Assembly: GCA_904502185.1 (NCBI GenBank)
Contig: CAJGDX010000001.1
Span: 1-60,796, forward strand
Direction of reading: 5' to 3'
Source of the DNA: an uncultured Bacteroidaceae bacterium
Lineage (GTDB): Bacteria > Bacteroidota > Bacteroidia > Bacteroidales > Bacteroidaceae
DNA length: 60,796 nt
Under the pieces are notes generated by a model that saw only the letters and a list, made by a program, of their open reading frames with translations, was not told the DNA's origin and did not search any database. A program made the translations under genes and the position numbers. Positions 1 through 18,661 of the stretch are shown here, piece by piece (position 1 is the stretch's first letter; the number at the start of each line of letters is the position of its first letter).

Positions 1-349
1 AAACGTTACAGTTGTTGATGATTGAGTAGTAATCCTTAACATCGAGATATTTGTTCTCTGAGTTTGCATCTACTGCAAAACGAGCGAGCTCCTGAATCTC
101 TGTTGTAGCACTCTTTTCATTAACCACCATGAGGTCGCCACGCAACTCACCGAACAATACCTGACGGTCGGCTACCTGCTGAACACTTTTCAGAATACCC
201 AGTACAGAGTAAACTGTGTCGTTAAGTGTCAAATCGGTCATGTCGTAGTCGACACGGTCTGACTCAACTTCAAGCATATCCTCGCACGAGCTCATGAAGA
301 GGGCGCCGCAGAGTAATATGCAAAGACTATAAATAAAATTCTTTTTCAT
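1..349 (-). CDS. SusD/RagB-family lipoprotein, N-terminal 116 codons only (gene runs off the left edge)
   Basis: Not in the ORF track because it is truncated. Manual minus-strand translation from the ATG at 349-347 gives MKKNFIYSLCILLCGALFMSSCEDMLEVESDRVDYDM...LFGELRGDLMVV...YYSIINNCNV. It has a lipoprotein signal plus Cys. The GELRxD ... Y..IN.CN pattern parallels the complete SusD-like ORF 9951-11747 (IWGELRADNM...YQTINYCNMLL). It lies 28 nt downstream of a SusC-like gene. Confidence 0.8.
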   Translation of the reverse strand, partial: MKKNFIYSLCILLCGALFMSSCEDMLEVESDRVDYDMTDLTLNDTVYSVLGILKSVQQVADRQVLFGELRGDLMVVNEKSATTEIQELARFAVDANSENKYLDVKDYYSIINNCNV

Positions 350-377
350 CATTTTAGAAATTTATGTTTTCCAAGTT

Positions 378-3300
378 TTATGAACCCCTCCGGCCTTTAC
401 CGACCGGCAAAGGCCGGAGGAAATTCATTGTATTACTTAGGTTATTGTTACATGAGAGGTTAATCTTAACACCCAAGTGGAAGCTGCGGCTCTGGGGAAG
501 CAGACCTGCATCTACACCTTGGTACAATACGTTGTTGCTAACCGAGAATTCGGGATCGCTACCCAAGTATTTGGTGAAAGTGAGAAGGTTCTCAGCTGCA
601 CCCCAAACGGTAACACCCTGAATCCATGTCAATGCAAGAGGCAAGTTGTAAGAGAGCTGTACCTTCTTGAGACGGAGGTAAGAAGCGTCCTCAATCCAAC
701 GGTCAGAGAAGCGGCTGTTGCCCATGGGGTCGCCGTAAGCTACGCGAGGCATGTTTGTCTCCTGACCATCGTAAGACCAACGGTTCAACACCGCCTTAGT
801 CTGGTTGAAGAAGTTGCTGCCACCCTCAAGCTGCTGACGGTAGTAGTTGTATGCGTCGTTACCCAATGAGTAGTTGAAGAGGATATCCAACTGCCAGTTC
901 TTGTAGTTCATCTTAGAGAAGATGTTACCATAGAGGTCGGGATGTGCATCACCAAGAACAACCTTGTCGGCTGAGTTGATTTCGCCATCACCTGTCATGT
1001 CAACGAATTTCACGTCACCTGCCTTGAAGTATGACTTGTTACCTGCTGCATCTCTCTGGTAGAGACCAAGTTCCTGAGCCTCTTTTGCAGATGCGATAAC
1101 ACCGTCAGTCTTGTAGCCGTAGAATGAACCTACTGCATCGCCTACGCGTGTGATAACCTCACCACCGTAAACGCTTACGGGGTCGAGTGTCTCGTCAAGA
1201 GCAGTTACCTCGTTCTTGTAGTGACCTGCAGAAGCGCCAAGTTCCCAAGTGAAGTTCTTGCTGTTGATAACCTTAGCATTGATTGATGCCTCGAAACCTG
1301 TATTCTCCATTTCGCCACCATTGCTCCAGTATGTACCCATACCTGTTACGTACTGGAATTTCTTTGCAACGAGAAGGTCTTTTGTCTGAGCTTTGTACCA
1401 GTCGAAAGAAACTGCTACACGGTCGTTGAAGAGAAGAGCGTCAACACCTACGTTTACACGGCTTGTTGTCTCCCATTTAACACCGTCGTTCTTAACGTTA
1501 CCGAGCTGAACACCCATCTGGCTGTCGGCATACTTGATAGCCTCGAGGTAGCTGCGTGCAGCGTAGAAGTTGATAGCGTCGTTACCTGCCATGTCGTAAC
1601 CTGCACGCAACTTCAGTGAGTTGATGCCGGGAACATTGAACCATGACTCAGAAGAGAGCAACCAACCTGCCTGTACTGAGGGGAATACTGCCCAGTTAAC
1701 ACCTGCAAAGTCAACACCGCCGTCAGCCTCCATACCGAAGCGTGAAGAAGACTCCATAGAAACGGTTCCCTGCAAGAAGTAACGTGTGAAGAGGCTGTAG
1801 TCTGCGTTCAAGTACCATGCCATGTTCTTCCACTGGTTGTTGTCACCATTGTCGGTAAGGTTGTTCTGGCTCTTATCGATGTTGGTAGAGTTGTCGTTAC
1901 CTGAGTTCACAGCTGAAAGGTAGTTACCGTCCATCTGGAAGTTAGTGTAACGGAATCCGCCGAACACGTTGAACTGGTGAGCGCCGAATGCCTTCTTCCA
2001 AGATACACGTGTATCGCTGGTGATAGAAGCCTCTTTACCGAAGTATGAAGCAAGCTTGTTACCTACGCTACCGTAGTTCTCGCGATAGAAGTGATACTGT
2101 GTATCAGCGGGAGAAGCGCCATAGGGGAGGTAATATTTCTCGCTCATGCGGTGGAGTGAGTAGTTGAAGAGCTCAGTAATCTTGAAGTTGCCAAGTGTGA
2201 ACTCGGGAGCTACTGTCAATGTGAACTGTGTGTACTCCTGGAAGTTCTTGTTCTCACCGTCACCAGCCTTGATGATTGTAACGGGGTTGTAGTATGAGCT
2301 TCTGCGAGCCTCAGGTGCACCTGCCTTTGACAATACGTCGTAAACAAATGTATCTGATGAATCGAAGATTGAAGTAATCTGGCTCTGACCTGTCTCCATA
2401 GAGAACTTATAGGGGCTGAGGAAAGGAGCCTTGATTCTTGAGAGGAAGCCGATAGAAGAGATAGGAGCTGACTCATACTCTTCGGGGGCACCATCGTCGA
2501 GCAACGCACGCTGAACACGGCTGTAACCGATGTCGAAACGTGTCTTGAAGTTCTTGGCAAGTTCGATGTCAGTGTTGAAGCGGATGTTCAAACGGTTGAA
2601 GTCGTTAGCCTCGTATGTGCTCTGTGAACCAGTGTAACCGAGTGAGAAGTTGTACATAGCAATCTCATCACCACCCTCTACGCCGATTTTGTAGTTCTGT
2701 GTAAATGCCTCACGGTATACATAGTCTGCCCAATCGGTTTCGTTGTGGTACATGTTGTAGTAAGGATAGTCGGGGTTGCTCTGGAGGAAAGAGTGTTTGA
2801 ACATTCTGTCGCTGTCGAGAGTACCTACCAACTCGTTGGCGTATGTACGATACTGCTCTGCACCCATCATTTCGGGGAGGTTGGGTGTAAGTGTCACACC
2901 ACCGTAGATGTTTGCAGTAATACGTGTAGCCATGCTCTTACCACGTTTTGTAGAGATAAGGAGCACACCGTTTGCTGCACGTGAACCATAGAGTGCTGTT
3001 GCATTCTTGAGAACCTGTACATCTTCGATATCCTCGATGTCGATAGCTGAAAGGATGTTGTTGTATGCACCCAAGTGAAGTGCGCCTGCATCCTCCTGCA
3101 AGTCGTAGATTACTCCGTCAACAACAACCAAGGGCTGTGTGTTGGCGTTGAGTGAGTTGATACCACGGATGAACATTGCAGCACCGATACCGGGAGTTGC
3201 CGAACGTGTGATTGTACGTACGTCAGCACCAAGGTTGTTTGCAATCTCAGCGTCTACTGTGATAGCGGGACCAACACCGATTTTAGTTGTGTTGGTTGCT

Positions 3301-3740
3301 GTGATAGCAATATCCTCGTTGTACTTTGTGCTGAAGTTATCTGTGTAGAGGTACACGTCAACTACCTCCTCGTTGCGTACGGGACGCTGAACGAATGCAT
3401 AACCGGGGGTAGAGAAGTTGAGCAATGTAACGTATGAGGGGATACCCAATTTATAAGCACCCTCTGCGTTGGTCATTGCGGTAACATTTTCGTATCCTGT
3501 TGCCTGAACGCGAACACCGGGGATAGGCTCTTTGGTAGCCGCGTCATAAACGACACCGGTGATTGTGCGTGCCACGACTATCTCAGAAGCCTTTTCGGCT
3601 TTCGCCGAAACGGTATCGTTCGCTTCATAACCGCCTGAGACCATAGCGGAAACAGTAACGGTAGATGACATAAGCACTGCCAATGCCACCATTGCTTGCA
3701 TAATTTGTCGCATATACATAATTGATTTATTATTTTTCAT
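378..3740 (-). CDS. SusC/RagA-type TonB-dependent outer-membrane transporter (copy 2) with an unusual 25-aa C-terminal tail
   Basis: 1120 aa. Signal peptide, then a carboxypeptidase-regulatory-like N-domain (ITGVVYDAATKEPIPGVRVQATG). Plug motifs are present (NTQPLVVVDGVIYD; VQVLKNATALYGSRAANGVLLISTKRG). A long barrel ends in the SusC-type last strand SFHLGVKINL, followed by extra residues SCNNNLSNTMNFLRPLPVGKGRRGS. A SusD-like gene follows. Confidence 0.93.
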   Translation of the reverse strand: MKNNKSIMYMRQIMQAMVALAVLMSSTVTVSAMVSGGYEANDTVSAKAEKASEIVVARTITGVVYDAATKEPIPGVRVQATGYENVTAMTNAEGAYKLGIPSYVTLLNFSTPGYAFVQRPVRNEEVVDVYLYTDNFSTKYNEDIAITATNTTKIGVGPAITVDAEIANNLGADVRTITRSATPGIGAAMFIRGINSLNANTQPLVVVDGVIYDLQEDAGALHLGAYNNILSAIDIEDIEDVQVLKNATALYGSRAANGVLLISTKRGKSMATRITANIYGGVTLTPNLPEMMGAEQYRTYANELVGTLDSDRMFKHSFLQSNPDYPYYNMYHNETDWADYVYREAFTQNYKIGVEGGDEIAMYNFSLGYTGSQSTYEANDFNRLNIRFNTDIELAKNFKTRFDIGYSRVQRALLDDGAPEEYESAPISSIGFLSRIKAPFLSPYKFSMETGQSQITSIFDSSDTFVYDVLSKAGAPEARRSSYYNPVTIIKAGDGENKNFQEYTQFTLTVAPEFTLGNFKITELFNYSLHRMSEKYYLPYGASPADTQYHFYRENYGSVGNKLASYFGKEASITSDTRVSWKKAFGAHQFNVFGGFRYTNFQMDGNYLSAVNSGNDNSTNIDKSQNNLTDNGDNNQWKNMAWYLNADYSLFTRYFLQGTVSMESSSRFGMEADGGVDFAGVNWAVFPSVQAGWLLSSESWFNVPGINSLKLRAGYDMAGNDAINFYAARSYLEAIKYADSQMGVQLGNVKNDGVKWETTSRVNVGVDALLFNDRVAVSFDWYKAQTKDLLVAKKFQYVTGMGTYWSNGGEMENTGFEASINAKVINSKNFTWELGASAGHYKNEVTALDETLDPVSVYGGEVITRVGDAVGSFYGYKTDGVIASAKEAQELGLYQRDAAGNKSYFKAGDVKFVDMTGDGEINSADKVVLGDAHPDLYGNIFSKMNYKNWQLDILFNYSLGNDAYNYYRQQLEGGSNFFNQTKAVLNRWSYDGQETNMPRVAYGDPMGNSRFSDRWIEDASYLRLKKVQLSYNLPLALTWIQGVTVWGAAENLLTFTKYLGSDPEFSVSNNVLYQGVDAGLLPQSRSFHLGVKINLSCNNNLSNTMNFLRPLPVGKGRRGS
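387..420 (-). other. GC-rich stem-loop at the SusC/SusD junction (12-bp perfect stem CCTCCGGCCTTT / AAAGGCCGGAGG, 10-nt loop)
   Basis: Read directly from the sequence. It lies inside the last 14 codons of ORF 378-3740 and about 37 nt upstream of the SusD-like ATG at 349. Confidence 0.6.
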
Positions 3741-3749: not shown

Positions 3750-5531
3750 TTATTCTCCGTCTGCCTCTACGGGTTCAAGAATTACGAAGTCTACGCGGAA
3801 CTTCTTGTTGTAATTCTTCTCCTGACGGCCTACGTTTGAAGCAACCTTAACTGTAACGTTGGTTTTCAGTTTGTCGATACCGAACTCGCTGTAGGGGAAG
3901 TTAACTTTGATGCGCTCACCTGTTTTGTCAGCAACCCAAAGTGTATCGATGCGAGTGGGGTCGTTGAACAAGTCAACTGATTTCTCAAGGTTCTTGGGAG
4001 CACCTGAACCGGTGTTAGCCTGTACTGTGATGACAACCTTGCTGGGGAGATACTCAGCGAGTTTCTCTGCTGAAAGGCTATCGGGGTTGTCATAGAATTC
4101 GGGTACAATTACCGCACCTACATAGTAGCTGCCTGAAAGTACCTCGGGGATTGTCCAAAGGAGTGAAGGTTTAGCACCTGATGAGCTACCTACAGCCTCT
4201 ACGTAAGTAAGGTTACGTTTGTCACCTTCGGGAACCTCGGGTGATACGTTGCTCTTGGCTACGTAACGTGTATAAGCCTCACCTGACTCAACGAACTTAA
4301 CCTTTGAGTTAGCTCTTGTCTCGCCCTGGTAGTCTACTCGCTCAGCCTCTACCTTGATGGTATCGTGCCAGAGATAGAAGGGTGAGAAGTTGAATTTGCT
4401 CTTTGTGTAGAAGATACCGTTTGAACACTCAACACCTTCGTCAGCACCATCCATAAGGTCTGCCATTGCAAACATACGGCGTTTGCCATTATATGCAGAG
4501 TATGTTGAAATCAATGAGTCGCGCTGGCCGTCACCATCCTCGTCGAGGTTACCGTTAGAGTCTGATGAGATAGCGGGCTGATCTTTGGGGCTGAATACCA
4601 TGTGGTTCAACAACATTCTGCGAGCATAGTACTTGCGGAGTGAATCGTTCTCGGCAAGAACAGATGCATCAGCCTTTGAATCGGCATAGTAGTTGAAGAG
4701 TTTCTCGATCTGGGGTACCATCTCTGTCCAAACATCGTTGGTGGGAACGAACATATAGAATGTTGAGTCCTCAGCTGTGATTCGGCCAAGACCAGCAGTA
4801 TATTTGTCGCCGCCTGTGTAGAACCAGATGTTAGAGTTTGTGAACTGTGAATCGAGGTAAGTCTGCTGACCCTTGATGGTGGGACCCTGGATACTTGAGA
4901 ACTCGTCGAACTCCATTACGTTGAATGAGTAGAGGAATTCTGCTACTGAGTCAACGTTCTCGGCGATTTCGAGGTACTCCCAAAGGTTGAGAGCGTAGCT
5001 TACTGAACCACTGATTTTGTGAATCAAACCGTTTGATACACGGATGTTGTAGTTTTCGGGAACTACCTCAAGGTTATCAAATGTATAACCATTCTCATAG
5101 TCACCTGCAAAGACAACCATCTTTTCGTTGAGAAGGAGGATGAAGTTGTTCTCATCCATTGCTTCTGAAGCAGGCTTCAGATAGTCAGCCATGTGTGACT
5201 TAACGAAGCGCTGAAGAACCCATTCGCGTTTACCATTCTCAATGTTATCCATCAGTTCCTGTTTGTTGAAAGAACCGTTAACAGGTGCCCACAGAGTGTA
5301 GGCGCGCGACTGGTTGAGCAGAGAGTCGGCACAACCGAGAGCATCTACTACTTCGTAAAAATCTGACAAGCTGGCGTCTGTCTTGATGTACTCAAGAATT
5401 GTACCATTCTTGGTGTTTGCGCCGTTGTCGCTGTAATGGTCGTCCCACTCCTCGGTACATGATGTTCCTACGAACATTGCACTCAGGAAGGCAACTGCCA
5501 TTAACATTCCATTTTTAAATTTTCTGTTCAT
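3750..5531 (-). CDS. Fasciclin (FAS1)-domain surface lipoprotein, 2 FAS1 modules plus a C-terminal beta-rich domain
   Basis: 593 aa. Lipobox ...GTSC is followed by acidic TEEWDD. FAS1 H1/H2-like motif pairs are YTLWAPVNGSF / SNGLIHKISG and YMFVPTNDVW / SNGIFYTKS. Confidence 0.75.
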   Translation of the reverse strand: MNRKFKNGMLMAVAFLSAMFVGTSCTEEWDDHYSDNGANTKNGTILEYIKTDASLSDFYEVVDALGCADSLLNQSRAYTLWAPVNGSFNKQELMDNIENGKREWVLQRFVKSHMADYLKPASEAMDENNFILLLNEKMVVFAGDYENGYTFDNLEVVPENYNIRVSNGLIHKISGSVSYALNLWEYLEIAENVDSVAEFLYSFNVMEFDEFSSIQGPTIKGQQTYLDSQFTNSNIWFYTGGDKYTAGLGRITAEDSTFYMFVPTNDVWTEMVPQIEKLFNYYADSKADASVLAENDSLRKYYARRMLLNHMVFSPKDQPAISSDSNGNLDEDGDGQRDSLISTYSAYNGKRRMFAMADLMDGADEGVECSNGIFYTKSKFNFSPFYLWHDTIKVEAERVDYQGETRANSKVKFVESGEAYTRYVAKSNVSPEVPEGDKRNLTYVEAVGSSSGAKPSLLWTIPEVLSGSYYVGAVIVPEFYDNPDSLSAEKLAEYLPSKVVITVQANTGSGAPKNLEKSVDLFNDPTRIDTLWVADKTGERIKVNFPYSEFGIDKLKTNVTVKVASNVGRQEKNYNKKFRVDFVILEPVEADGE

Positions 5532-9907: not shown

Positions 9908-9949
9908 CCTTTCTGCCCGCCGGGCTTTCACCCGGCGGAGGTAGAAAGG
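9908..9949 (-). other. Compound GC-rich stem-loop immediately after the SusD stop codon (possible partial terminator or RNA-stability element)
   Basis: Outer stem CCTTTCT/AGAAAGG (9908-9914 / 9943-9949). Inner stem CGCCGGG/CCCGGCG (9918-9924 / 9931-9937). Loop CTTTCA. It sits in the only long (83-nt) intergenic gap of the operon and has no clear U-tract. Confidence 0.5.
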
Positions 9950-9950
9950 C

Positions 9951-11747
9951 TTAATTGCGTTCAATAGAGCTGCTCTTTTCAAATGCAGGGTTCTGCTTGA
10001 GAGCGGGGTTCAACTTAAGCTCATCCTCGTGAATGGGGCAGAAGAGTGAGTTGATAGATGCCATCTTACTCTGTACCGCACCGGCATTGCTGTCGAGTTT
10101 CTTGATTACAAGGTCGAGTACATTCTTTGTAGTACGCTCGCAGAGAGCTTTCTGTACAAGGTCGTACCAACGTTTGCCTTCGTATGTAAGCTCGCGGAGA
10201 CGCTCGTCGAAAACAAGTGCCTTCATAGATGCCTGAGTTGTGTACTCCTCGGGAAGCAATGAGTCACGTTTCTCGATGATTGAACGTCTGTTGACTGCCT
10301 GAACAAGCTCGAATGACTTAGCAAGGTCATCAGCAGCTTCGCTGCGGCTTGCAAGCGCAAGAGCCTTCATCAACATAACGTCAGTCTTACGATAGATAAT
10401 CCAGTCTGCGGGACATTTGATATCACCATACCAGCAATCTGCGTTAGCACCACCGTTGAGGGTAGATGACTTTGTTGCATATTTTGCAATAGTGTACTCA
10501 GCCTTGTCGTCACCGCTACCGCTAATGGGGTATGATGTAAAGCTGTAACGACGGATGTCAGATGATTTGTAGAGGTCGCCTACGATAGCAGACTTACCGG
10601 GAACCATGAATGAACCTGATGTCTTGTTGTAACCGTAGAAGTCCTTAACTGCACCATTGGCGTTTGTGCTACCATCGTAAACGAGTTTGAAGATTACCTC
10701 GTCTGTAGGAAGTGAACGTCCACCTATTACCACTGCGCCGGTTGCACCAAAGATAGCATTGTATGCAGGAGAAATCATTGAGTTACGGTTAACACCCTCG
10801 TTAGCTGTCAAGTAGTAGGGGTTGTCTGTACCGGGACCCATGTCGTTTACTGTGATGCTGTATTTCTCCTTAGCCTCGTCGATGGCTGCGTGCATTGCGT
10901 TGATTACTTCGTCGCAGTATGTAACAGCGTCGTTGTAGAACTCGATAGCCTGAGCCGAGGGAGTGTCGCTGTTATCTTTATACTGTGTGAATGCAGCACG
11001 CCACAAGCTTACGTCTGCCATCATTGCATTCACAGCGTTGCGTGTGATGCGGCATGTGTTAAAGTCGTATACCTTTGTTGTCTGTGCAGATGTAGTAACC
11101 ATTGTACGACCGGTGAAACCACCGCTGCGCATTACAAGGGTTGATGCACGCTGCAAGTCAGACATGATGCTGTCGAGTGCCACGAGGGGATCAACCTGGG
11201 GATATTCGGGCTTCAACTGCTCGTCTGCGTCGAGTGCCTCGTATGACAAGGGGATGTCGCGGAACGAACGTACAAGGTAGAAGTGGCAAAGAGCACGGAG
11301 TGCGTAAGCCTCACCCATTACGATGTCAAGGTCACCTGTCATGAAGTCAGGGTCCTGGTTAACTACATCGGGAGCATACTTGAGAAGCATGTTACAGTAG
11401 TTGATGGTCTGGTAGAATTTATTCCATTGGAAGTAGTCGTTTGTCTCCAAAAGGTTGGCTTCTACGATGTATCTCAAGTCTGTTGAGGCACTTGTACGTG
11501 TGATCATGTTGTCGGCACGCAACTCACCCCAAATCATCATACGCTTAACAGTATTATCATCAATCATGTTTTTGTAGCATGCTGCCAACATACTGTTAAC
11601 GTCCTCGGCGCTTTTCCAATAGTTCTCCAAGATGGTGGAGTTTGTAGGATAGATGGTGAGGAAGTCCGTACATGATGTCATCATTGATGAGCATCCAAGG
11701 GCTGCCGCCATTACCGCCGAACCTATTATATTTTTAATTTTTTTCAT
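9951..11747 (-). CDS. SusD/RagB-family outer-membrane lipoprotein (copy 1)
   Basis: 598 aa. Lipoprotein signal ...MMTSC. SusD signatures are present (IWGELRADNM, YQTINYCNMLL, C-terminal ERLRELTYEGKRWYDLVQ). It lies 12 nt downstream of SusC. Confidence 0.92.
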   Translation of the reverse strand: MKKIKNIIGSAVMAAALGCSSMMTSCTDFLTIYPTNSTILENYWKSAEDVNSMLAACYKNMIDDNTVKRMMIWGELRADNMITRTSASTDLRYIVEANLLETNDYFQWNKFYQTINYCNMLLKYAPDVVNQDPDFMTGDLDIVMGEAYALRALCHFYLVRSFRDIPLSYEALDADEQLKPEYPQVDPLVALDSIMSDLQRASTLVMRSGGFTGRTMVTTSAQTTKVYDFNTCRITRNAVNAMMADVSLWRAAFTQYKDNSDTPSAQAIEFYNDAVTYCDEVINAMHAAIDEAKEKYSITVNDMGPGTDNPYYLTANEGVNRNSMISPAYNAIFGATGAVVIGGRSLPTDEVIFKLVYDGSTNANGAVKDFYGYNKTSGSFMVPGKSAIVGDLYKSSDIRRYSFTSYPISGSGDDKAEYTIAKYATKSSTLNGGANADCWYGDIKCPADWIIYRKTDVMLMKALALASRSEAADDLAKSFELVQAVNRRSIIEKRDSLLPEEYTTQASMKALVFDERLRELTYEGKRWYDLVQKALCERTTKNVLDLVIKKLDSNAGAVQSKMASINSLFCPIHEDELKLNPALKQNPAFEKSSSIERN

Positions 11748-11759: not shown

Positions 11760-14700
11760 TTAGAATCCTACAGAAATACCGATTGTGTATGAACGTGAAC
11801 GAGGTGTCTTTGAGTTGTCCTCGGCGCGTCCCCAGCTACCTACTGAGATTTCAGGGTCAAGACCTGTGTACTTAGACCAGAAGCAGAGGTTGTCGGCTGA
11901 TGCGTTAAGACGAAGTGTCTGCAAGCCGTAACGTTTCAGGAATGCGGGGTCGAAGTTGTAAGAGAGCTGCAAGTAAGAGAGACGCAGGTAAGAAGCATCC
12001 TCTACGTAGCGGCTGCTACCCAACCAGTTGTAACCTGTGTTGTAAAGTGCGCGGGGCATTTCAGTGATGTCACCCTCTTTACGCCAGCGCCAGTTAACTG
12101 CGATACTCTGGTTTACGTTGGTATACATGTTCTCAACTGCCATACGTGCCTGGTTCATTACGTCGATGTCGTAACGATATGTGAAGTTAGCCTTCAACTG
12201 GAAACGTTTGTAGTTGAATGTAATACCGAAACCACCCTGTGCTTTGGGGTTAGAGTTACCGAGGTAAACAAGGTCGAGCTCGTTGATGTTACCGTCGAAG
12301 TTGATATCTTCGTAGATAGCGTCACCACCCTTGAACTCGTAAGCTGATGTTCCTGCCTCTGTATCGTAGTTGTAAACCATCTGTTTGGGTGTGCCGTCAG
12401 CATTGTAAACTACATTGCCGTTAGCGTCACGTACAACGGGGCAAGAGAATGATGCATAGTTCTTGTCGATGAAGTTCTTAACGGCTCTCTGGTCGTTAAC
12501 ATCGATACCCTGCTTGCGCATCATGTCCTCTGAGATCTTGTTAGCCTTCTCCCAGTTCTTGTAGCTGTATGCGTAAACACCTTTGTAACGGAAACCGTAG
12601 ATTGAACCCAAGGGGTTACCTACCTGAATACGTCCAAGGTATGAACCGTTCTTGAAGTCGTAGTCGCCGTTAGTTGCGTCGAGTACTGTATTCTCCATAG
12701 CCTCAACTGAGTTGAAGTTCTGACCAATGTTGAAGTAAACGCTCATGTCGAGGTCTTTAGCCAACTTGATCTTAGAAGTGCTAAGGTTCAACTCCCAACC
12801 CTTGTTGCGAAGCTCACCGGTGTTTCTGTAACGGAGGCTTTCGTAACCTGTAGAAGTAGGAATCTTATAGTTGCTCATCAACTGGTCGCGTGTGTTGTTG
12901 TCGTAGTAGTTGAATGCAGCAACGATGAGGCTGTTGAACAACTCGATGTCAGAACCGATGTTGAACTCACGTTTCTGCTCCCAACGGAGTGTTGTCAAAC
13001 GCATACCACCGGGGATGAATGCAGACATACCTGCGTATGAACCGCCGGGGTTGTAGGTTGAGTACATGAGGTAGTCCTCACCGGGTGCAGAACCTGACCA
13101 ACCGTAACCGGGACGGATTGAGAACATTGAGAGCCAATCTCTAGACCACTCCATCCAGTCCTCGTCGCTGATGTTCCAACGACCTGAAACTGCGGGGAAG
13201 AAGCCCCATTTCTCGTCGGCACCGAACTTGGTGTTACCCTCTGCGCGGAGTGTGAAACCGAGTGAGTATTTTGACTTGTATGAGTAGTGGCTCTGGTAAG
13301 CCAATGACATTGAACGCCACTGACCTGTAGATGTACCTGCATCGCTGAGTTTTGAACCGAGTGTGGGTGAAGTTGTGTTACCTGAGGGAAGACCGTAGGT
13401 AGTCTCACGCTGCTCGCTGCTGCTTCCTGAGTAGAGCTCGTACTGAGCTGTCATTGTAAGGAAGTGGTCCTCGTTGTTGAAGTGAGGTGTGAAGATCAAG
13501 TTGTGACGTGTGGTGAACTGCAAAGATTTGTAGTCCTTCATGTATGACTTGTTGATCTGGTCGTTGGTCCACTGTGTTGTGGTGAGTGACGAGGGCAGAT
13601 AGCTTGTCTCGGTGAAGGTGTTCGCGTTCATGTTAACCATTGCACGATACTTCAACTGTGTTTCGTCATCCTCGAGGCCAAGGAGGTTGTACTCCAATGT
13701 CAACTGAGGTGTGATAGAGTATGTCTCTTCGTTGTTGCGAGCATATTTTGCAACTGCGATGGGGTTCTTAATGTTTTTCTGGTTGCCATCGAAGATTGCG
13801 TTGGCGTTGTTCATCATCTGCATGTAGTCGTCGGTCATTGTACCGTCTTTCTCGTAACGGTTAACTGACATGTTAGGCATGATGAGCTGTGAGTAAGCAA
13901 GGATACCCTTGTTACCGTTACCATCGTAGTCGTACTCGTAGTTCTTTCTGTTATTTGTGTATGTGAAAGAGAAGTCAGAGATAACCTTGATACGGTCTGA
14001 TACGTAGTAGTCAAGAGCCATTGTTGAGGTGAAACGGTCGAGCAACTGACGGATAATGGTACCTGTTTCGTTGTAGTAACCGCCTGAGATACGGAAGGTA
14101 GCTTTCTCACCACCACCCACGAGAGAGATGTTGTGTTCGTTGGTGTAACCGTGCTTTGAAACCTGATCAACCCAGTCTGTGTTGTTGCTGTAGTTGTAGA
14201 ATGTTTCGGGAAGCTCGATGTTGTAGTTCAACTCCTCTACTGAACCGATTGCGGGGTCCTGCTTGGGGTTGAAGTGTGACTCTTTGAGCAACATAGTGTA
14301 GTCGTCACCGTTAAGAAGGCTAAGACCGTTGGGAATCCATTTGTCCTTGAAACGGTAGCTGTACTGCAAGCGTGTCTTACCGCGAGCACCACGTTTTGTC
14401 TTAATCTTGATGACACCGTTAGCACCGCGTGAACCCCAGATAGCACAAGCAGAAGCATCCTTCAATACCTCGATTGACTCGATGTCGTCGGGGTTAACGG
14501 TAAGCAACTGTGCGAATGACTCGTTGTTTGCAGACTCGAAGTCGAAGTTCTCGCCGGTAGGCATTTCGAAGATGTTGTCGTTTACAACGATAAGGGGCTG
14601 AGCATTACCTGTGATTGATGAGGTACCACGCAGACGCATTGTTGTACCTGAACCAAGGTCACCAGAGTTGAAGGTAATGTCAAGACCGGCAATCTGTCCC

Positions 14701-15161
14701 TGAAGAGCCTCGTCAACTGATGCGAAAGAGAGACCTTCCATTTCGCTCATGCTGAACTTCTGGGTTGCCTGTGATACCTCACGTGAGAGAATGTCAAGAG
14801 CACCAGACTGTGTACGGGGCTTTGCTGTAACCTCGACAGCCTCGAGAACGTTGTCCTCTACCATCTTGACATTGAACACTGTACGAGAACCAATCTCGAG
14901 AACTACTGTCTTATATCCGATATAAGAAATTTCGAGACGGTTACTTGTATTCTTTACAACCATGGCGAAGTTACCCTCCATATCGGTCATGGTAGCCTCG
15001 ATAATACGGTTGTTCTTGTCGCGCTCGGTTACGTTAACCATGATGAGCGGACCTTCGGAGTCGCTATAGACGTTTCCGGAAATTCTCGCACCTTTCTGTG
15101 CAAATGCGGTACTTACGCAGCAGCAGAGAAGGAGAAATAATAAATGTTTTATCTTTATCAT
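11760..15161 (-). CDS. SusC/RagA-type TonB-dependent outer-membrane transporter (copy 1)
   Basis: 1133 aa. Signal peptide MIKIKHLLFLLLCCCVSTAFAQ. CarboxypepD_reg-like N-domain (ISGNVYSDSEGPLIMVNVTE). Plug motifs NAQPLIVVNDNIF and IEVLKDASACAIWGSRGANGVIKIKTKRG. Canonical aromatic C-terminus ...YTIGISVGF. No STN domain. Confidence 0.95.
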   Translation of the reverse strand: MIKIKHLLFLLLCCCVSTAFAQKGARISGNVYSDSEGPLIMVNVTERDKNNRIIEATMTDMEGNFAMVVKNTSNRLEISYIGYKTVVLEIGSRTVFNVKMVEDNVLEAVEVTAKPRTQSGALDILSREVSQATQKFSMSEMEGLSFASVDEALQGQIAGLDITFNSGDLGSGTTMRLRGTSSITGNAQPLIVVNDNIFEMPTGENFDFESANNESFAQLLTVNPDDIESIEVLKDASACAIWGSRGANGVIKIKTKRGARGKTRLQYSYRFKDKWIPNGLSLLNGDDYTMLLKESHFNPKQDPAIGSVEELNYNIELPETFYNYSNNTDWVDQVSKHGYTNEHNISLVGGGEKATFRISGGYYNETGTIIRQLLDRFTSTMALDYYVSDRIKVISDFSFTYTNNRKNYEYDYDGNGNKGILAYSQLIMPNMSVNRYEKDGTMTDDYMQMMNNANAIFDGNQKNIKNPIAVAKYARNNEETYSITPQLTLEYNLLGLEDDETQLKYRAMVNMNANTFTETSYLPSSLTTTQWTNDQINKSYMKDYKSLQFTTRHNLIFTPHFNNEDHFLTMTAQYELYSGSSSEQRETTYGLPSGNTTSPTLGSKLSDAGTSTGQWRSMSLAYQSHYSYKSKYSLGFTLRAEGNTKFGADEKWGFFPAVSGRWNISDEDWMEWSRDWLSMFSIRPGYGWSGSAPGEDYLMYSTYNPGGSYAGMSAFIPGGMRLTTLRWEQKREFNIGSDIELFNSLIVAAFNYYDNNTRDQLMSNYKIPTSTGYESLRYRNTGELRNKGWELNLSTSKIKLAKDLDMSVYFNIGQNFNSVEAMENTVLDATNGDYDFKNGSYLGRIQVGNPLGSIYGFRYKGVYAYSYKNWEKANKISEDMMRKQGIDVNDQRAVKNFIDKNYASFSCPVVRDANGNVVYNADGTPKQMVYNYDTEAGTSAYEFKGGDAIYEDINFDGNINELDLVYLGNSNPKAQGGFGITFNYKRFQLKANFTYRYDIDVMNQARMAVENMYTNVNQSIAVNWRWRKEGDITEMPRALYNTGYNWLGSSRYVEDASYLRLSYLQLSYNFDPAFLKRYGLQTLRLNASADNLCFWSKYTGLDPEISVGSWGRAEDNSKTPRSRSYTIGISVGF

Positions 15162-15178: not shown

Positions 15179-18100
15179 TTATTTAATAGGAAGACCGTCG
15201 GGACCAACCTTAACGATTGAGTCGGCGCCAATTACGTAACCGAGTGTGTCGACTGCAAGAGGACGACCATCCCAGTGGATGAACTGAGCCTCTTCGTTGA
15301 TGAGGTAGCCATCTTCTGTGATAAGTATCTTAGCTTCTGTGCCGTCTTCAGCTGTACGGGTAACGTACTCTTCGTGTGAGAGTTTTGTTTTGTTTGCGCT
15401 GGGCTTCATGATGTAACCTGTCTTCTGGTATTTCTCGCCTTCAGCTGTGTCGAAGATCAAGCTGTTGCGATAACCGATGAGATAGGGAACCTTCTCTTCG
15501 CCTACGAATATCTGGTCTACGAGCTCACCGTCTGCTGCGAAGCGGCGGAAACGTCCGTCGTAACCGAGTACGCCTGAGTTGTAGAGTGCGCTGTCAATCT
15601 GGTGTACAACAGCAAATGATGATGTTGTAATCTGTGTAGCATTTGCGGGGTCAGTACCCTTGAGATAGATGTCACGAGCAAGGATGTTCCAAGACTGGTG
15701 CTCCTCACCGGGAGTGTTGATGATTCTTGCCTTGCGACCGAGGTTGTCACGGATGGTGATTGTGTGACCACCGAACTCGTCAGCCTCTGACTTGATGATT
15801 GTCTCGAAGAAGCGACCTGTTGCATCGTCGATGGCAGCTGTCTCGTAACGTACTGTGTCGTAAGCAACACCTGCTGATACTACTGAGAAGGGTTTTGTAT
15901 CTACATACACTGCGTTATCCTGGAAGTGGTAACGAGCAAACTTGTTGATCATACGGATGATAGAAGCTGCACGGCCTTCGTTGCCTGCTGCTACCTCAAG
16001 CTCGATGTCTTCGTATGTGGGAAGACCAAGTGCGTATGCATTCTGGATAGCCTCGTTTGTAGGCACGTATACTGAATAGTGGTATGTGCTGAAGAAAGGT
16101 ACTACGAGGTCAGATACACACTCTTTTGTTGTCTTGTGCTGGTAGAAGATTGAGTATTTCTTCAAAGAGTCCTTCTCTACCTTTGTAGCATCAGCCAAGG
16201 GGAAGACCTGTTTGAGAAGGTCAGCTGATACAATGTTACATACGTTGTAGAACTCGCTGAAGTTTGCGTTTTTGCTAACGTATGAGTTAACTGATTTTGT
16301 GGGAGGTGATACAACACCTGACTTGTAACCGTGTGTATTAGCGTCGGTTGTGTGTGTACAGTATGTTACACCGTTCTTCTCTGTGAAGCGCTGTTTAACG
16401 TCAACACCGGGGAAGTCTGAACCGAGCTCAACCTGCTCACCACCGTAGAATTTAACCTCGAGTGTGTTGTCAGCTACATTACCCTTAACTGCACATTTTA
16501 CTGTACCGTAACCCTTTGTCAAGTAGTACTGGTTGCCGTCCTCGATGTTGTCTACTATAATAAGGTACTCCATGAGGTCGTGCAGACGGTTACCGATGTC
16601 TTCGGTCTCCTTTATCTTATCGCTGGCCTTGTACTGTTTCTTGGCTGCGATACCTACTGAGTCGCCCAATGCGTATGTCACGGGGTCGAACTTGTATGTG
16701 TCAGCCCAGAGGTAGTCGTCCTTGTCCTTCTCGGTGCGTTTGCCGTAACGGAACTTCCAAGCAAGGGGCTGTGTACTGCTCAAAGATACGGGATCGTAGT
16801 AGATGAAGTATTCGTCATCGGGTACGATGAAGCTGAAGTATGAGTCCATAGCAAGCAGGTATGCGTCGTAGGTAAGGTCGTTGATAACCTTGTTCATGAT
16901 ACGCATGTTCTGCATGATGAGGGGAGGTGTCATTACCGCCTGATATTTTGCAGGACCGAATACATTATTTAATATATATATAACACCGTTGTTTGCAACT
17001 ACACACTCTTCAACATCGGCAGGTGTGATACCCATGGGGTCGCGGGCGTCGTTTGTAACCTTGTCGAAGTTGCTGGGAAGTGTTCCGAGGAACGAAGCCT
17101 TCATAAGGTTGGCGATGAATGCCTGAACGATGTTCAAGGGGATGCTGTCGAGACATGCAGCGATTGACATATAGTCGCTCTCTGTCAAGTTCTGAACTGC
17201 GTCCTTACCGTAACGCTCAACGATGGCTGCACCTACAGCGTAGGGACGTTTCTCATCCTCGGGAAGAGCGTTGTTGGCTGCGATAACAGAAGCATCCTGG
17301 TACTCCTCGGGAGCGAAGAAGCGGTAGATCATCTCGTCGTTAGGAACGAGCATTGCTGCCATGTCAGCCTCTTTGCCGTTTGAACCCGCATACTGTGTGA
17401 ATCCGGGGTCGTAGGGGAGGTATACACCGTTGAAGTTCTTTTTCTCAGAAACGTTGTTCTGGAAGTCTGTATATGCGTTGAACTCGTTCTCAGTCTCAGT
17501 AGAGTACTTGATTGTGTGTACGTACTGTCTGTCGGGAGTGTTCTTGTCCTGATTGAGAACTTTGTCGTATGCATCCTGAAGGAAATCGCCTTCAGTTGTC
17601 TTCACTGACTTAGAGTCGCCACCCCAGAGAGGATATGCGAAACGGTCGAGCATGCGGCTGAAGAGCTGTGTATCGGGGTGTTTGCGAAGCTCCTGTGCCA
17701 TATCTGAGGGAGGAACAAGCACACCGTCCAGACGATACATGTAACCGTTCTTACAGATGATGGTGCGGTCGTCATCAGAGTATTCACCAAGGTCGATACC
17801 ACTGGGAACTACCTCTTTGTCGAAGATGAATGACTCGTTACCCTCGTCTGTACGGCCCTTCTGATTGTTGAAGAAGACGTCGAAGTCTGAGTTTTCAACA
17901 TGGTTGTTGCTCAAGTACTCGCCGAGGAAGTGTACCATCATGGGATCTGATGCACCTACTACAACGCGCAAACCGTTACCGAACAAGCTGTCGGGACGGA
18001 AGGGATCGAAGAATGCGTTGTGTTTGGGGAGGTGGAATCCGCCGGGAGCGTCCTCGTAGAAATAAGCCACTGTGTCCATCATAGAAGCTGATGTTGTACG

Positions 18101-18547
18101 GCGCAAGCAGCTTCCCTCGATGGGGGGGTTACCCTGACGGCTTGACAACATATCGAGAAGATATGCATTGTCGAGCATAGAGTTGTAGAGAATTACTTTC
18201 TTCTGTGCCAAAGAGAGGTCTGCGTAGCTGCTAACGCCCCATGTGTTATCAGCATAGAACTCTTCGAAGGCAACGTCATCGGCAATAAAGAGTGTTTTAC
18301 TACCGGTACGTGCAAGTACTTCCTTGAGGCCAAGGTCCTCAATGATGTTCACGTAGTTCTGATAGGTGTGGTCTCCAGTTCCCTCTTTGAGGCGATCATA
18401 GATACTGGCACCCAGCCACGTCGGTTCGCTGTCGTCATACTTGTATTCGTCCAATTCGTCAAAACAAGAATGCAGCAAGCCGCCTGTAACAAGCGCACAC
18501 ATAAAAACAAGTGCGCGGCTAAATTTACTTAAGCAGTGTTTAAACAT
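15179..18547 (-). CDS. Giant surface lipoprotein with about four fasciclin (FAS1) modules; first gene of the operon
   Basis: 1122 aa. Lipobox LLHSC is followed by FDELDEYKYDD. There are four H1/H2-like motif sets: KTLFIADDVAFEEF / KNGYMYRLDGVLVPP; AAMLVPNDEMIYRF / NNGVIYILNNVFGP; FSFIVPDDEYF; YSVYVPTNEAIQNAY / AVVHQIDSALYNS. Confidence 0.75.
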   Translation of the reverse strand: MFKHCLSKFSRALVFMCALVTGGLLHSCFDELDEYKYDDSEPTWLGASIYDRLKEGTGDHTYQNYVNIIEDLGLKEVLARTGSKTLFIADDVAFEEFYADNTWGVSSYADLSLAQKKVILYNSMLDNAYLLDMLSSRQGNPPIEGSCLRRTTSASMMDTVAYFYEDAPGGFHLPKHNAFFDPFRPDSLFGNGLRVVVGASDPMMVHFLGEYLSNNHVENSDFDVFFNNQKGRTDEGNESFIFDKEVVPSGIDLGEYSDDDRTIICKNGYMYRLDGVLVPPSDMAQELRKHPDTQLFSRMLDRFAYPLWGGDSKSVKTTEGDFLQDAYDKVLNQDKNTPDRQYVHTIKYSTETENEFNAYTDFQNNVSEKKNFNGVYLPYDPGFTQYAGSNGKEADMAAMLVPNDEMIYRFFAPEEYQDASVIAANNALPEDEKRPYAVGAAIVERYGKDAVQNLTESDYMSIAACLDSIPLNIVQAFIANLMKASFLGTLPSNFDKVTNDARDPMGITPADVEECVVANNGVIYILNNVFGPAKYQAVMTPPLIMQNMRIMNKVINDLTYDAYLLAMDSYFSFIVPDDEYFIYYDPVSLSSTQPLAWKFRYGKRTEKDKDDYLWADTYKFDPVTYALGDSVGIAAKKQYKASDKIKETEDIGNRLHDLMEYLIIVDNIEDGNQYYLTKGYGTVKCAVKGNVADNTLEVKFYGGEQVELGSDFPGVDVKQRFTEKNGVTYCTHTTDANTHGYKSGVVSPPTKSVNSYVSKNANFSEFYNVCNIVSADLLKQVFPLADATKVEKDSLKKYSIFYQHKTTKECVSDLVVPFFSTYHYSVYVPTNEAIQNAYALGLPTYEDIELEVAAGNEGRAASIIRMINKFARYHFQDNAVYVDTKPFSVVSAGVAYDTVRYETAAIDDATGRFFETIIKSEADEFGGHTITIRDNLGRKARIINTPGEEHQSWNILARDIYLKGTDPANATQITTSSFAVVHQIDSALYNSGVLGYDGRFRRFAADGELVDQIFVGEEKVPYLIGYRNSLIFDTAEGEKYQKTGYIMKPSANKTKLSHEEYVTRTAEDGTEAKILITEDGYLINEEAQFIHWDGRPLAVDTLGYVIGADSIVKVGPDGLPIK

Positions 18548-18630
18548 AAATATAAATTTTATAAATAATTAAAATTTTTCTACATACGTTTTCATTAAGC
18601 TACACTTTAGAGCATAGTCTATGTAACGTG

Positions 18631-18661
18631 CAAAAATAACTCTTTTATAGTAATGTTCAAA
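18631..18661 (-). promoter_or_regulatory. Bacteroidetes primary-sigma promoter for the FAS1/SusCD operon (-33 TTTG, 19-nt spacer, -7 TATTTTTG)
   Basis: The minus strand reads TTTG-aacattactataaaagagt-TATTTTTG, which matches the TTTG / TAnnTTTG consensus and spacing. It lies about 85 nt upstream of the ATG at 18547. Confidence 0.55.

Follow-up and report, generated by a model that had tools for sequence, protein, structure and literature searches.

What is taken up by an outer-membrane operon that encodes two SusC/SusD pairs and four fasciclin-repeat lipoproteins, and in which no degradative enzyme is found? The question is raised by one end of a 60,796-nt stretch of DNA from an uncultured Bacteroidaceae bacterium (contig CAJGDX010000001.1; hereafter the window). 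It was approached through the genes present, the folds of their domains, the lipoprotein signals, the promoter and the hairpins, together with the conservation of gene order over about 47 loci.

Gene content and organization of the operon

An ORF check returned eight co-directional minus-strand genes in the order FAS_A, SusC1, SusD1, FAS_B, FAS_C, FAS_D, SusC2 and SusD2, so that the set proposed in the first-pass annotation was recovered in full, every ORF lying where it had been placed. The intergenic gaps (17, 12, 83, 15, 31, 9 and 28 nt, in that order from FAS_A to SusD2) are also as originally read, and RNA folding confirmed the hairpin within the 83-nt gap. The 28-nt SusC2–SusD2 gap, however, is a secondary state, because the SusC2 stop codon has been lost: the TAA of L040 (a contig 93% identical to this one) corresponds to TCA at window 455-453, giving SusC2 a 25-aa C-terminal extension that is absent from all of its relatives, which end at query residue about 1095. 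The ancestral gap measures about 110 nt and contains a second strong hairpin.

Family matches and gene order support the earlier claim that the locus is an outer-membrane nutrient-uptake operon of the SusC/SusD type, the accessory genes of which are FAS1 lipoproteins alone. Searches with Pfam and NCBIfam profiles, the two collections from which the absence of CAZymes was judged, detected no CAZyme, peptidase, sensor, sigma or anti-sigma gene in the operon, in agreement with the earlier reading. Genes for a GDSL/SASA esterase and a GH123 enzyme are present elsewhere within the window.

Two divergent SusC/SusD pairs

SusC1 (11760..15161, minus strand) and SusC2 (378..3740, minus strand) both belong to the SusC/RagA family of TonB-dependent transporters (TIGR04056, 666 and 608 bits, respectively). 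Pfam Plug and CarbopepD_reg_2 domains were identified in both and profile searches revealed an STN domain in neither, bearing out the original observation. Despite a mutual identity of 25%, 1:1 orthologs exist for each. SusD1 (9951..11747, minus strand) is a SusD-family lipoprotein lid (SusD-like_3, 8.5e-15; SusD_RagB, 1.3e-13), while SusD2 (1..349, minus strand) is a divergent SusD-like lipoprotein, truncated at the window edge after its first 116 residues, with the lipobox MSSC followed by EDMLEVE. The 116-aa fragment has no family match of its own; its full-length counterpart in L040 (661 aa) gives a weak SusD_RagB match, and the relatives encode proteins of 590-820 aa with SusC2 always directly before. 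The protein is highly divergent, and sequence comparison of SusD2 with the PDB gave no significant match. Among relatives, the accessory lipoproteins diverge faster than the transporters, as expected of exposed ligand-binding proteins.

The closest solved structure to SusC1 is 8AA4, the SusC of the Bacteroides thetaiotaomicron dextran utilisome (E 2.3e-82), which SusC2 matches at E 2.9e-91, and SusD1 is closest to the dextran-utilisome SusD (9SJE_B, E 3e-17). RagA is matched by both SusC proteins at E about 1e-44 only, and since both are thus far closer to the dextran-utilisome SusC, a glycan is a likelier ligand than a peptide or a cell surface, options that the first-pass annotation had placed on an equal footing. 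It is quite improbable that the operon encodes a RagAB-like importer of peptides or glycoproteins, for which the FAS1 lipoproteins would be protein-binding adhesins and would trap proteins of host, plant or microbial origin. Such an importer would suit a fold classically associated with protein binding and cell adhesion (periostin and TGFBIp being examples), a locus free of CAZymes and the detectable homology to RagA, but neither the operon nor its flanks contain a peptidase gene, both SusCs are far nearer to glycan transporters than to RagA or BT2264, and FAS_B and FAS_C contain a CBM-like fold.

Fasciclin-repeat lipoproteins

FAS_A (15179..18547, minus strand) is a lipoprotein of 1122 aa in which four FAS1 domains follow one another in tandem (about residues 40-990). 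FAS_B (7690..9867, minus strand; 725 aa) and its paralog FAS_C (5563..7674, minus strand; 703 aa) are 47% identical over their full length (blastp), each consisting of two FAS1 domains (about residues 40-475 in FAS_B) and a C-terminal CBM-like beta-sandwich. FAS_D (3750..5531, minus strand; 593 aa) contains an N-terminal FAS1, a probable second FAS1 and a C-terminal stretch of ~200 aa without assignment. The lipobox cysteines and acidic tails first noted (CFDELDE, CTDEID, CSEDID, CTEEWDD) are all present in the translations, that of FAS_A following as FDELDE on the lipobox LHSC.

Against Pfam Fasciclin, FAS_B (52 bits, 8.9e-14), FAS_C (48 bits, 2.1e-12) and FAS_D (34.5 bits, 2.8e-8) score above the cut-off, whereas FAS_A, with 19.7 bits, falls below the PF02469 cut-off of 22. 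A PF02469 match is precomputed for most FAS_A orthologs, the positions of the H1/H2-type motifs are invariant across 30 of them, and the FAS_A AlphaFold (AF2) model (pLDDT 79.6) aligns with the four FAS1 domains of TGFBIp/periostin over about 975 columns (Foldseek, E about 1e-12); its beta-rich C-terminal region (about residues 990-1122) has no Foldseek match. The AF2 model of FAS_B (pLDDT 85.9, pTM 0.84) shows two FAS1 domains and matches periostin/TGFBIp at E 1e-12 (Foldseek). For FAS_D, 20 of the 22 orthologs match Fasciclin, and its family profile aligns with that of FAS_B/C at an hhalign probability of 97% (E 7e-11). Together, the Pfam and NCBIfam scores, the ortholog matches, the two models and the profile alignment support about ten FAS1 modules (4+2+2+2), the number originally suggested.

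A CBM-like domain in FAS_B and FAS_C

The initial description of FAS_B and FAS_C as proteins of two FAS1 modules was correct for those modules and overlooked a third domain, recognized by phmmer and Foldseek: a ~245-aa beta-sandwich that ends both proteins (FAS_B residues about 480-725, window 7693-8430). The closest fold is MiXBM (Foldseek, E 2e-7, TM 0.68), a CBM84 xanthan-binding module (PMC10881899), with CBM6 and CBM35 next. Similarity to MiXBM is also detectable by sequence (phmmer, E 4.5e-5; profile, E 6.5e-4), over about 55 residues around a GTYELR...VDG motif. The domain has neither a Pfam model nor a Pfam CBM match, and numerous Arg, Asp, His, Trp and Tyr residues are invariant in alignments of its family. 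The C-terminal region of FAS_D, compared alone with the module, gave no significant match (E 0.19).

In Sus-like loci, the genes for surface glycan-binding proteins (SGBPs) usually lie directly downstream of susD. The earlier proposal of fasciclin proteins as substitutes for glycan-binding proteins is best modified: the data agree better with FAS_B and FAS_C, which occupy that position and have a CBM84/6/35-like end, as analogues of glycan-binding proteins. Ten members of the wider module family (about 650 clusters) were sampled; the domains joined to the module in these are of the FAS1, BspA-type LRR or FGE-sulfatase-like kind, and five of the ten have no Pfam match. As none of the ten is fused to a recognized CAZyme catalytic domain, the formal definition of a CBM does not apply and a non-carbohydrate ligand is possible.

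Conservation and genomic neighborhood

The core order FAS_A-SusC1-SusD1-FAS_D-SusC2-SusD2, with zero to three B/C-type genes between SusD1 and FAS_D, is kept in 39 species-level genomes, in L040 and in L042-L049 (about 47 loci, spanning 24-86% identity). The operon is widely conserved in herbivore-gut Bacteroidaceae and mainly limited to herbivore-gut bacteria. FAS_D is the accessory gene directly upstream of SusC2 in every locus, while 11 of 39 loci lack a B/C-type gene and hence the CBM-like module, which is therefore not essential to the core machine. That the order with two specific SusC/D pairs is strictly maintained even where sequence identity falls to about 25% speaks for a functional complex and against fortuitous co-transcription. 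We therefore give very little credence to the notion that the main role of the FAS1 lipoproteins is to attach the cell to plant particles, host mucus or other cells and that they are only transcribed alongside generic SusC/D porters, even though the module is common to FAS1 and BspA-type LRR proteins, typical adhesin architectures, and L050 and L051 encode FAS_A-like together with FAS_C-like proteins but no SusC/D.

The region left of position 1 was read through the relatives, in which, consistent with the first-pass view of an enzyme-free system, SusD2 is the last gene and is followed by housekeeping genes (Sir2, amidase/MlaD, radical SAM, GSCFA, Alr-MurF, FolP, RF3, PPDK and SecDF). No CAZyme, peptidase, sensor, sigma or anti-sigma gene was found in the flanks of the about 47 loci, and no close relative has a linked CAZyme or sugar-catabolic gene; one more distant locus, L027, encodes an MFS_2 glycoside-type permease two genes past SusD2. 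The locus is located in a core-gene neighborhood, not in a typical accessory PUL context, and a search of the accessible literature returned neither a description of such a system nor a substrate assigned to such a locus.

These neighborhoods bear on whether the operon is one part of a split PUL, in which the enzymes and sensor for a common plant polysaccharide are encoded elsewhere in the genome and the FAS1 proteins are unremarkable SGBPs. That SusC/D are nearest to characterized glycan importers and that a CBM-like domain occupies the SGBP position would both be accommodated, as would the esterase and GH123 genes elsewhere in the window and a GH5 gene that several relatives carry on the other strand, about 10 kb upstream. 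However, the GH5 gene is set off from the operon by ETF, acyl-CoA dehydrogenase, FKBP, aroC, DUF6057 and PD40 genes, and in L047 and L048 an OEP gene takes its place. None of the loci compared has acquired a CAZyme or regulator gene beside the operon, and the promoter does not look ECF-sigma-dependent (see below); we consider a split PUL possible but unlikely.

FAS1 domains elsewhere have proteins, hyaluronan-receptor partners or carotenoids as ligands. A hydrophobic or otherwise non-glycan plant small molecule (a carotenoid, quinone or lipid-linked compound), held in FAS1 pockets as in AstaP, would be in keeping with the herbivore-gut distribution, with the lack of enzymes and regulator and with the core-genome location, which suggests a vitamin- or cofactor-like nutrient. 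Carotenoid-binding FAS1 proteins of the AstaP type do appear among the weak sequence and fold matches, but at marginal values (E 0.36-0.54 by sequence, 7e-3 by fold), and the CBM-like domain points to carbohydrate. The substrates known so far for SusC-type barrels with SusD lids are oligomeric and hydrophilic, and import of a hydrophobic or other non-glycan small molecule appears highly improbable.

Promoter, hairpins and proposed mechanism

A Bacteroidetes-type promoter (18631..18661, minus strand), consisting of TTTG (-33, 18661-18658) and TAnnTTTG (-7, 18638-18631), is located 83 nt upstream of the FAS_A ATG. The motif recurs 80-83 nt upstream in L040, L042, L044, L046, L047 and L048, and the alignment shows its core and the subsequent GCACGTTACATAG to be conserved. 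Judged by sequence, it looks like a Bacteroidetes primary-sigma promoter rather than an ECF-sigma-dependent one. The GC-rich stem-loop in the 83-nt gap, which directly follows the SusD1 stop codon (9905..9951, minus strand), has a dG of -33.6 kcal/mol (z -5.4), and the one located past the ancestral SusC2 stop codon and ahead of SusD2 (380..428, minus strand), also GC-rich, has a z of -5.7; 0 of 200 shuffles were as stable in either case. The latter region is present in L040 but indel-rich.

With moderate confidence, we favor a utilisome-like import machine in which FAS1 lipoproteins stand in the positions of SGBPs and the ligand is probably a soluble glycan or oligosaccharide. The operon would form a single transcription unit, starting at the primary-sigma-type promoter upstream of FAS_A and, we infer, expressed constitutively; the two stem-loops, behind SusD1 and behind SusC2, probably tune how abundant the mRNA segments are relative to one another. 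Its products would make up a complete outer-membrane capture and import apparatus with no degradative or sensory part, the import channels being two anciently diverged TonB-dependent SusC/SusD pairs and the accessory subunits four FAS1-repeat lipoproteins, presumably exported to the surface and associated with SusC/D. The FAS_A gene precedes the first pair and the FAS_B, FAS_C and FAS_D genes follow SusD1; among the accessory proteins, FAS_A and FAS_D would be the conserved core. The paired FAS1 domains of FAS_B and FAS_C may form an elongated stalk or scaffold that holds out the CBM84/6/35-like beta-sandwich to capture the ligand, and might also offer binding surfaces themselves. The ligand, possibly branched or anionic, would either need no surface cleavage or be cut by other members of the community or by enzymes whose genes lie elsewhere, before being passed to the SusD lids and imported via SusC1 and SusC2. 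These components might assemble into a utilisome, for which SusC2D2 with stably bound surface lipoproteins provides the precedent (PMC7618045).

Comparison with known systems

The Bacteroides utilisomes for levan (BT1760-1763) and dextran (BT3087-3090) resemble the present operon in their adjacent susC and susD genes, the N-terminal CarboxypepD_reg-like and Plug domains of SusC and the lipoprotein genes directly after susD (PMC7618045, PMC13450635). The dextran utilisome is the source of the best solved matches for SusC1, SusC2 and SusD1, and its SGBP, like FAS_B and FAS_C, has putative CBM domains. In contrast, the operon described here has no glycoside hydrolase, lyase, hybrid two-component, SusR or ECF-sigma regulator gene, comprises two SusC/D pairs with mutually 25% identical SusCs, lies behind a primary-sigma-type promoter in a core-genome neighborhood and employs FAS1-repeat accessory lipoproteins, whereas the SGBPs known to us consist of Ig-like or beta-sandwich domains.

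A SusC/D-type pair without linked CAZymes likewise occurs in RagAB of Porphyromonas gingivalis and in BT2261-2264 of B. thetaiotaomicron, the latter with extra small lipoproteins. Homology to RagA and to BT2264 is detectable (E 1e-44 and 1e-17 to 1e-24, respectively, versus 1e-82 to 1e-91 for the glycan SusCs), but these systems lack FAS1 proteins and the locus here lacks a protease context. Tandem FAS1 domains with conserved H1/H2-type motifs are shared with TGFBIp, periostin and fasciclin I, FAS_A aligning along four FAS1 domains of TGFBIp/periostin and FAS_B along two; the present proteins differ in being bacterial lipoproteins linked to a TonB-dependent transporter, in their larger FAS1 modules (about 240 aa, with insertions) and in sequence (9-16% identity). 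Finally, the predicted C-terminal module has the beta-jelly-roll fold of CBM84 (MiXBM, 7EHG; Paenibacillus xanthan lyase, 6F2P) and CBM6/CBM35, and is distinguished from CBM84 by its size (about 245 versus about 135 aa) and, in the AF2 model, by a helical insertion.

Operon organization and family assignment

Eight minus-strand open reading frames were called at exactly the coordinates claimed in the first-pass annotation, in the order FAS_A (15179-18547), SusC1 (11760-15161), SusD1 (9951-11747), FAS_B (7690-9867), FAS_C (5563-7674), FAS_D (3750-5531), SusC2 (378-3740) and SusD2, whose first 116 codons (2-349) lie in the window; FAS_A to FAS_D are fasciclin (FAS1)-repeat lipoproteins. The intergenic gaps from FAS_A to SusD2 are 17, 12, 83, 15, 31, 9 and 28 nt. 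SusC1 and SusC2 belong with the SusC/RagA TonB-dependent transporters: both give full-length matches to TIGR04056 (666 and 608 bits, respectively; NCBIfam, curated cut-off 368 bits) and both contain Plug and CarbopepD_reg_2 domains (Pfam). For the SusC signature TIGR04057 (cut-off 46.2), SusC1 scores above (58.4) and SusC2 just below (43.2). Pfam finds an STN domain in neither transporter, as had been noted from the sequence. SusD1 is a SusD-family protein by its SusD-like_3 and SusD_RagB matches (Pfam), and SusD2 was placed in the family through a full-length ortholog. The adjacent susC-like and susD-like genes by which a PUL is recognized are present as two pairs. The lipobox cysteine and neighboring acidic residues quoted earlier for the FAS lipoproteins are indeed present; acidic residues immediately after the lipobox cysteine are the pattern of the Bacteroidetes lipoprotein surface-export signal.

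FAS1 domains of the lipoproteins

The FAS1 call made from sequence motifs was checked against the Pfam Fasciclin model (PF02469, gathering threshold 22 bits), which is exceeded by FAS_B (52.2 bits), FAS_C (47.8 bits) and FAS_D (34.5 bits); FAS_A, at 19.7 bits, falls just under the threshold, although its orthologs do carry the match. A profile built from 30 FAS_B/C homologs matches periostin and TGFBIp (E ~1e-20), and ~437 N-terminal residues of the FAS_B AlphaFold model (pLDDT 85.9, pTM 0.84) align with multi-FAS1 proteins (Foldseek, E ~1e-12). The FAS_A family profile gives only marginal periostin matches among PDB sequences (E 0.03) and its alignment with the FAS_B/C profile is limited to the first ~100 residues; the claim of four modules was decided by structure prediction. 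The FAS_A model (pLDDT 79.6) aligns over ~975 columns to TGFBIp and periostin, both 4xFAS1 proteins (E ~1e-12), and comparison of the AF2 models with TGFBIp, periostin and fasciclin I in Foldseek gives tandem FAS1 folds: FAS_A contains four such domains and FAS_B two. Across 30 orthologs of FAS_A, all four H1/H2-type motif pairs are invariant. The predicted structure supports a FAS_A architecture of four FAS1 modules followed by a beta-rich tail that has no structural match. FAS_D, to judge from its alignment with FAS_B/C (hhalign probability 97%), is a distant paralog of these proteins, and 20 of 22 FAS_D orthologs have a Fasciclin match. The earlier tally of about ten FAS1 modules is a fair count, the total being ten. 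A system in which FAS1 itself holds a small hydrophobic ligand, in the manner of AstaP, is an alternative that we consider very improbable.

A CBM-like C-terminal module in FAS_B and FAS_C

The description of FAS_B and FAS_C as 2xFAS1 proteins was right about their two FAS1 domains and missed a third, the C-terminal CBM-like domain (a beta-sandwich of ~245 aa) that is apparent from both Foldseek and phmmer. In the FAS_B model, the C-terminal part (~200 residues) is matched by carbohydrate-binding modules. MiXBM (PDB 7EHG, E 2e-7, TM 0.68), which is the xanthan-binding CBM84 module found in a xanthan lyase from Microbacterium (PMC10881899), is the top Foldseek match; next come the xanthan lyase 6F2P from Paenibacillus, CBM6E and a number of CBM35 modules. 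The likeness to MiXBM is visible in the sequence also (phmmer E 4.5e-5; profile E 6.5e-4), and the FAS_B C-terminus shows the feature expected of such modules, a beta-jelly-roll fold with homology to a CBM already classified. Because of the FAS1 and CBM matches of FAS_B and its 47% identity to FAS_C, both proteins are assigned the architecture FAS1-FAS1-CBM-like.

A profile of the isolated module retrieved ~650 clusters (at 50% identity) among 1.84 billion representatives, with the module C-terminal in all cases; no Pfam model covers it. Ten diverse members were sampled for their N-terminal partners, which are FAS1 in two, BspA-type LRR in two, FGE-sulfatase-like in one and without a Pfam match in five. 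A recognized CAZyme catalytic domain is fused to the module in none of the ten, and it therefore falls outside the formal definition of a CBM, which requires residence in a CAZyme. The module has, on the strength of the predicted model, a CBM fold with remote homology to CBM84, and carbohydrate binding is putative. The FAS lipoproteins encoded after susD have the position, the lipobox and the acidic export motif of surface glycan-binding lipoproteins, with the CBM-like fold in FAS_B and FAS_C, and are candidates for that role. No significant similarity to the module was detected in the C-terminal region of FAS_A or the C-terminal 200 residues of FAS_D.

Proteins P0280, P0301 and P0388 of the representative library carry the same C-terminal module behind BspA-type LRR or FGE-sulfatase-like N-termini, and the extreme C-terminus of the family, KPEDxY, is nearly invariant. 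Two Logan contigs of 52% GC (L050, positions 3262-8402, and L051) have three consecutive genes for secreted non-lipoproteins and no SusC/D genes. One product is 161 aa long, another (560 aa) is FAS_C-like and includes the CBM-like module, and a third (977 aa) is FAS_A-like; behind its signal peptide each begins with a similar short motif, VVxVxxxDGxxxxF.

Conservation of the operon across relatives

The search for the same gene order in Bacteroidales genomes that the first-pass annotation had called for recovered it, with zero to three B/C-type genes (those like FAS_B or FAS_C). A SusC2 scan of species-representative genomes returned 39 loci, all in MAGs assigned to Bacteroidaceae, to Prevotella-like lineages or to other Bacteroidales, mainly from the guts of roe deer, buffalo, goat, sheep, yak and horse. 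Wherever the available sequence is long enough, the locus has the order FAS_A-SusC1-SusD1-(0 to 3 B/C-type FAS)-FAS_D-SusC2-SusD2, and the B/C-type gene is missing from eleven. A 93%-identical contig, L040, contains the entire operon, with a SusD2 of 661 aa, and gene order is identical in a more distant organism (L049, 40% GC). SusC1 and SusC2 share 25% identity, yet each has 1:1 orthologs throughout, so the double SusC/SusD pair is old and maintained. The transporters change more slowly than the accessory lipoproteins (in one locus, L001, FAS_D is 60% and SusC1 86% identical), and the accessory families are large, with at least 1348 clusters for FAS_A and at least 550 for FAS_B/C. The fasciclin proteins might instead be adhesins, merely co-transcribed with the transporters; the conserved gene order with both transporter pairs speaks against this, and we give the reading scarcely any weight.

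L040, an independent contig, ends ~350 bp past SusD2, and the window itself begins within SusD2; assemblies seem to break just downstream of the operon, perhaps at a repeat.

Genomic context: enzymes, regulators and neighbors

Neither a linked GH, PL or CE nor a dedicated sensor/regulator, two further marks of a PUL, accompanies the operon. No GH, PL or CE was found in the eight operon proteins (Pfam and NCBIfam) or in the flanks of ~47 related loci (Pfam/NCBIfam-level annotation), and no peptidase in operon or flanks. Hybrid two-component sensors, SusR and ECF-sigma/anti-sigma genes are absent throughout the window flank and the relatives, in agreement with the earlier claim of no sensor/regulator gene; the sole nearby regulator genes, two of AraC type, occur in L049 alone, at 1.3 kb downstream. 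CAZymes plus a sensor/regulator immediately left of position 1 had been named as the finding that would overturn the enzyme-free description, and in the relatives examined SusD2 ends the unit. Downstream of it lie lineage-variable housekeeping genes (Sir2, amidase and MlaD, DnaA, ribonucleotide reductase, radical SAM, GSCFA, Alr-MurF, FolP, RF3, formyltransferase, PPDK, SecDF, Na/Pi transporter and MscS). An ordinary PUL that has been split, with its enzymes at another place, would fit the two susC-like/susD-like pairs; with enzyme-free flanks recurring across the relatives, we regard it as unlikely, though a possibility to be taken seriously.

Large proteins follow SusD2 in two loci and were considered as hybrid sensors or enzymes; this was rejected, as they have no Pfam match and are lineage-specific, secreted non-lipoproteins. 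L026 (15617-23261) has two in tandem, of 1402 aa and at least 1066 aa, whose first 783 residues are 99.9% identical, indicating that the pair arose by very recent duplication or is an artefact of assembly. In L027 (15105-20627), SusD2 is followed by a co-directional secreted protein of 1311 aa and then by an MFS_2 permease (glycoside-pentoside-hexuronide type), the only hint of sugar transport beside any locus.

Upstream of FAS_A, seven relatives (L042-L048, compared with window 18548-29908) have ETF, acyl-CoA dehydrogenase, FKBP, AroC, DUF6057 and PD40 genes and then a gap of 250-500 bp. The DUF6057-PD40 pair lies ~10 kb from FAS_A in the window, separated from it by a cytidylyltransferase, two DUF3857/transglutaminase-like genes, frr, rsgA and a 652-aa gene; this displacement indicates a lineage-specific rearrangement, and DUF6057 and PD40 were rejected as operon members and taken as conserved neighborhood. 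The ~10-kb separation is found at least partly in L040 too. The 652-aa gene (19000-20958, minus strand) encodes a probable lipoprotein (LLGC) with only faint (alpha/alpha)6-barrel likeness (C5-epim_C, a C5-epimerase C-terminus, 21 bits; GH76, E 0.0045) and no NCBIfam match. As it is followed by its own very strong terminator hairpin (~18903-18955, z -7.0) and stands beside FAS_A in none of the seven relatives, it was considered as a hidden CAZyme and rejected as part of the system.

The remainder of the window is housekeeping. Its only clear CAZymes, a GDSL/SASA-type acetylesterase followed by a GH123 glycoside hydrolase (56448-60228, plus strand), lie on the opposite strand, 38 kb away from the operon. 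At 37768-41163 (plus strand), the gene for a 1131-aa protein that contains a TMEM260-like protein O-mannosyltransferase domain is followed by one for a polysaccharide deacetylase; both are surrounded by tRNA-modification and folate genes.

Expression signals and the SusC2 stop codon

The Bacteroides primary-sigma promoter pattern is TTTG / TAnnTTTG. Such a promoter, with TTTG (-33) and TAnnTTTG (-7) at 19-nt spacing, occupies 18661-18631 on the minus strand, 83 nt upstream of the FAS_A ATG; L040, L042, L044, L046, L047 and L048 have the same motif at the same distance, followed by the conserved GCACGTTACATAG. The promoter type agrees with the operon having neither an STN domain nor an ECF sigma, and suggests, as far as sequence can indicate, that expression of the operon may be constitutive or trans-regulated. 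Scanning for the sigma-70 consensus and for simple terminators gave no useful information in a Bacteroidetes genome. The hairpin reported in the 83-nt gap proved to be a strong stem-loop (dG -33.6 kcal/mol, z -5.4), and another strong hairpin separates SusC2 from SusD2 (z -5.7); Rfam gave no known RNA elements in window 1-24000.

The SusC2 stop codon is TAA in L040 and TCA in the window (453-455, minus strand), and a stop at the TAA position is implied in all 39 relatives. Its loss adds a 25-aa tail (SCNNNLSNTMNFLRPLPVGKGRRGS; affected C-terminus 378-455) past the last barrel strand, which could impair outer-membrane insertion or else be a sequencing error. An exact-sequence look-up of SusC2 returned no identical entry; the window allele differs from the recorded ones.

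A proposed capture-and-import system and its likely cargo

The best-supported interpretation is a utilisome-like capture-and-import machine without enzymes of its own. In such a machine the FAS1-repeat lipoproteins would hold the positions of surface glycan-binding proteins, and FAS_B and FAS_C would present the CBM-like head. The ligand is most likely a soluble glycan or oligosaccharide, which would need no surface cleavage or would be cut by enzymes whose genes lie elsewhere or by other community members. Against glycan import, however, many lineages do without the CBM-like module, it was never found on a recognized CAZyme domain in the ten-member sample, and the conserved FAS_A and FAS_D offer no ligand clue. 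A bolder version is doubtful as a whole: a constitutive, core-genome, "capture-only" utilisome in which multi-FAS1 lipoproteins form an unrecognized SusC/D accessory class, the substrate class is new to SusC/D (an intact anionic microbial exopolysaccharide fragment, a glycoprotein or a hydrophobic plant-derived cofactor) and the ~245-aa module founds a new binding-module family.

CAZyme-free SusC/D loci are common in Bacteroidota; to our knowledge they are almost entirely uncharacterized, with a known substrate in almost none. The present locus is an unusually clean, well-conserved and experimentally tractable case, its eight-gene (core six-gene) order being fixed over dozens of herbivore-gut species in housekeeping surroundings with no regulator. 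Should the FAS1 proteins prove to be accessory subunits of SusC/D, surface glycan-binding proteins would gain a new structural class, and the C-terminal module without annotation would be a candidate new CBM family. For rumen and hindgut microbiology, the locus is a concrete, testable target in the study of a nutrient apparently imported by uncultured Bacteroidaceae without degradation of their own. We found no paper linking fasciclin proteins to SusC/D, and none giving a substrate for a homologous locus (subscription-only literature and PULDB lay outside the search).

Comparison with known SusC/SusD systems

The closest solved structures for SusC1, SusC2 and SusD1 come from the B. thetaiotaomicron dextran utilisome (8AA4, E 2.3e-82 to SusC1 and 2.9e-91 to SusC2; 9SJE_B, E 3e-17 to SusD1; PMC7618045, PMC13450635); SusD2 has no significant match among solved structures. 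This closeness leans the cargo toward glycans, though it is not specific. The levan SusC is next-closest to SusC1 and SusC2 (E ~1e-50 to 1e-54), and BT2264 is at E 1e-17 to 1e-24. An importer of peptides or glycoproteins like RagAB would draw on the detectable homology of RagA to both SusC proteins (E ~1e-44, in contrast to 1e-82 to 1e-91 for the dextran SusC); RagA is not the closest relative, however, and there is no proteolytic context here, making such an importer improbable. Relative to these systems, what appears new, at the level of sequence, is the accessory-protein class and the unannotated module family, with a mechanism that would so far remain within the SusC/D paradigm.
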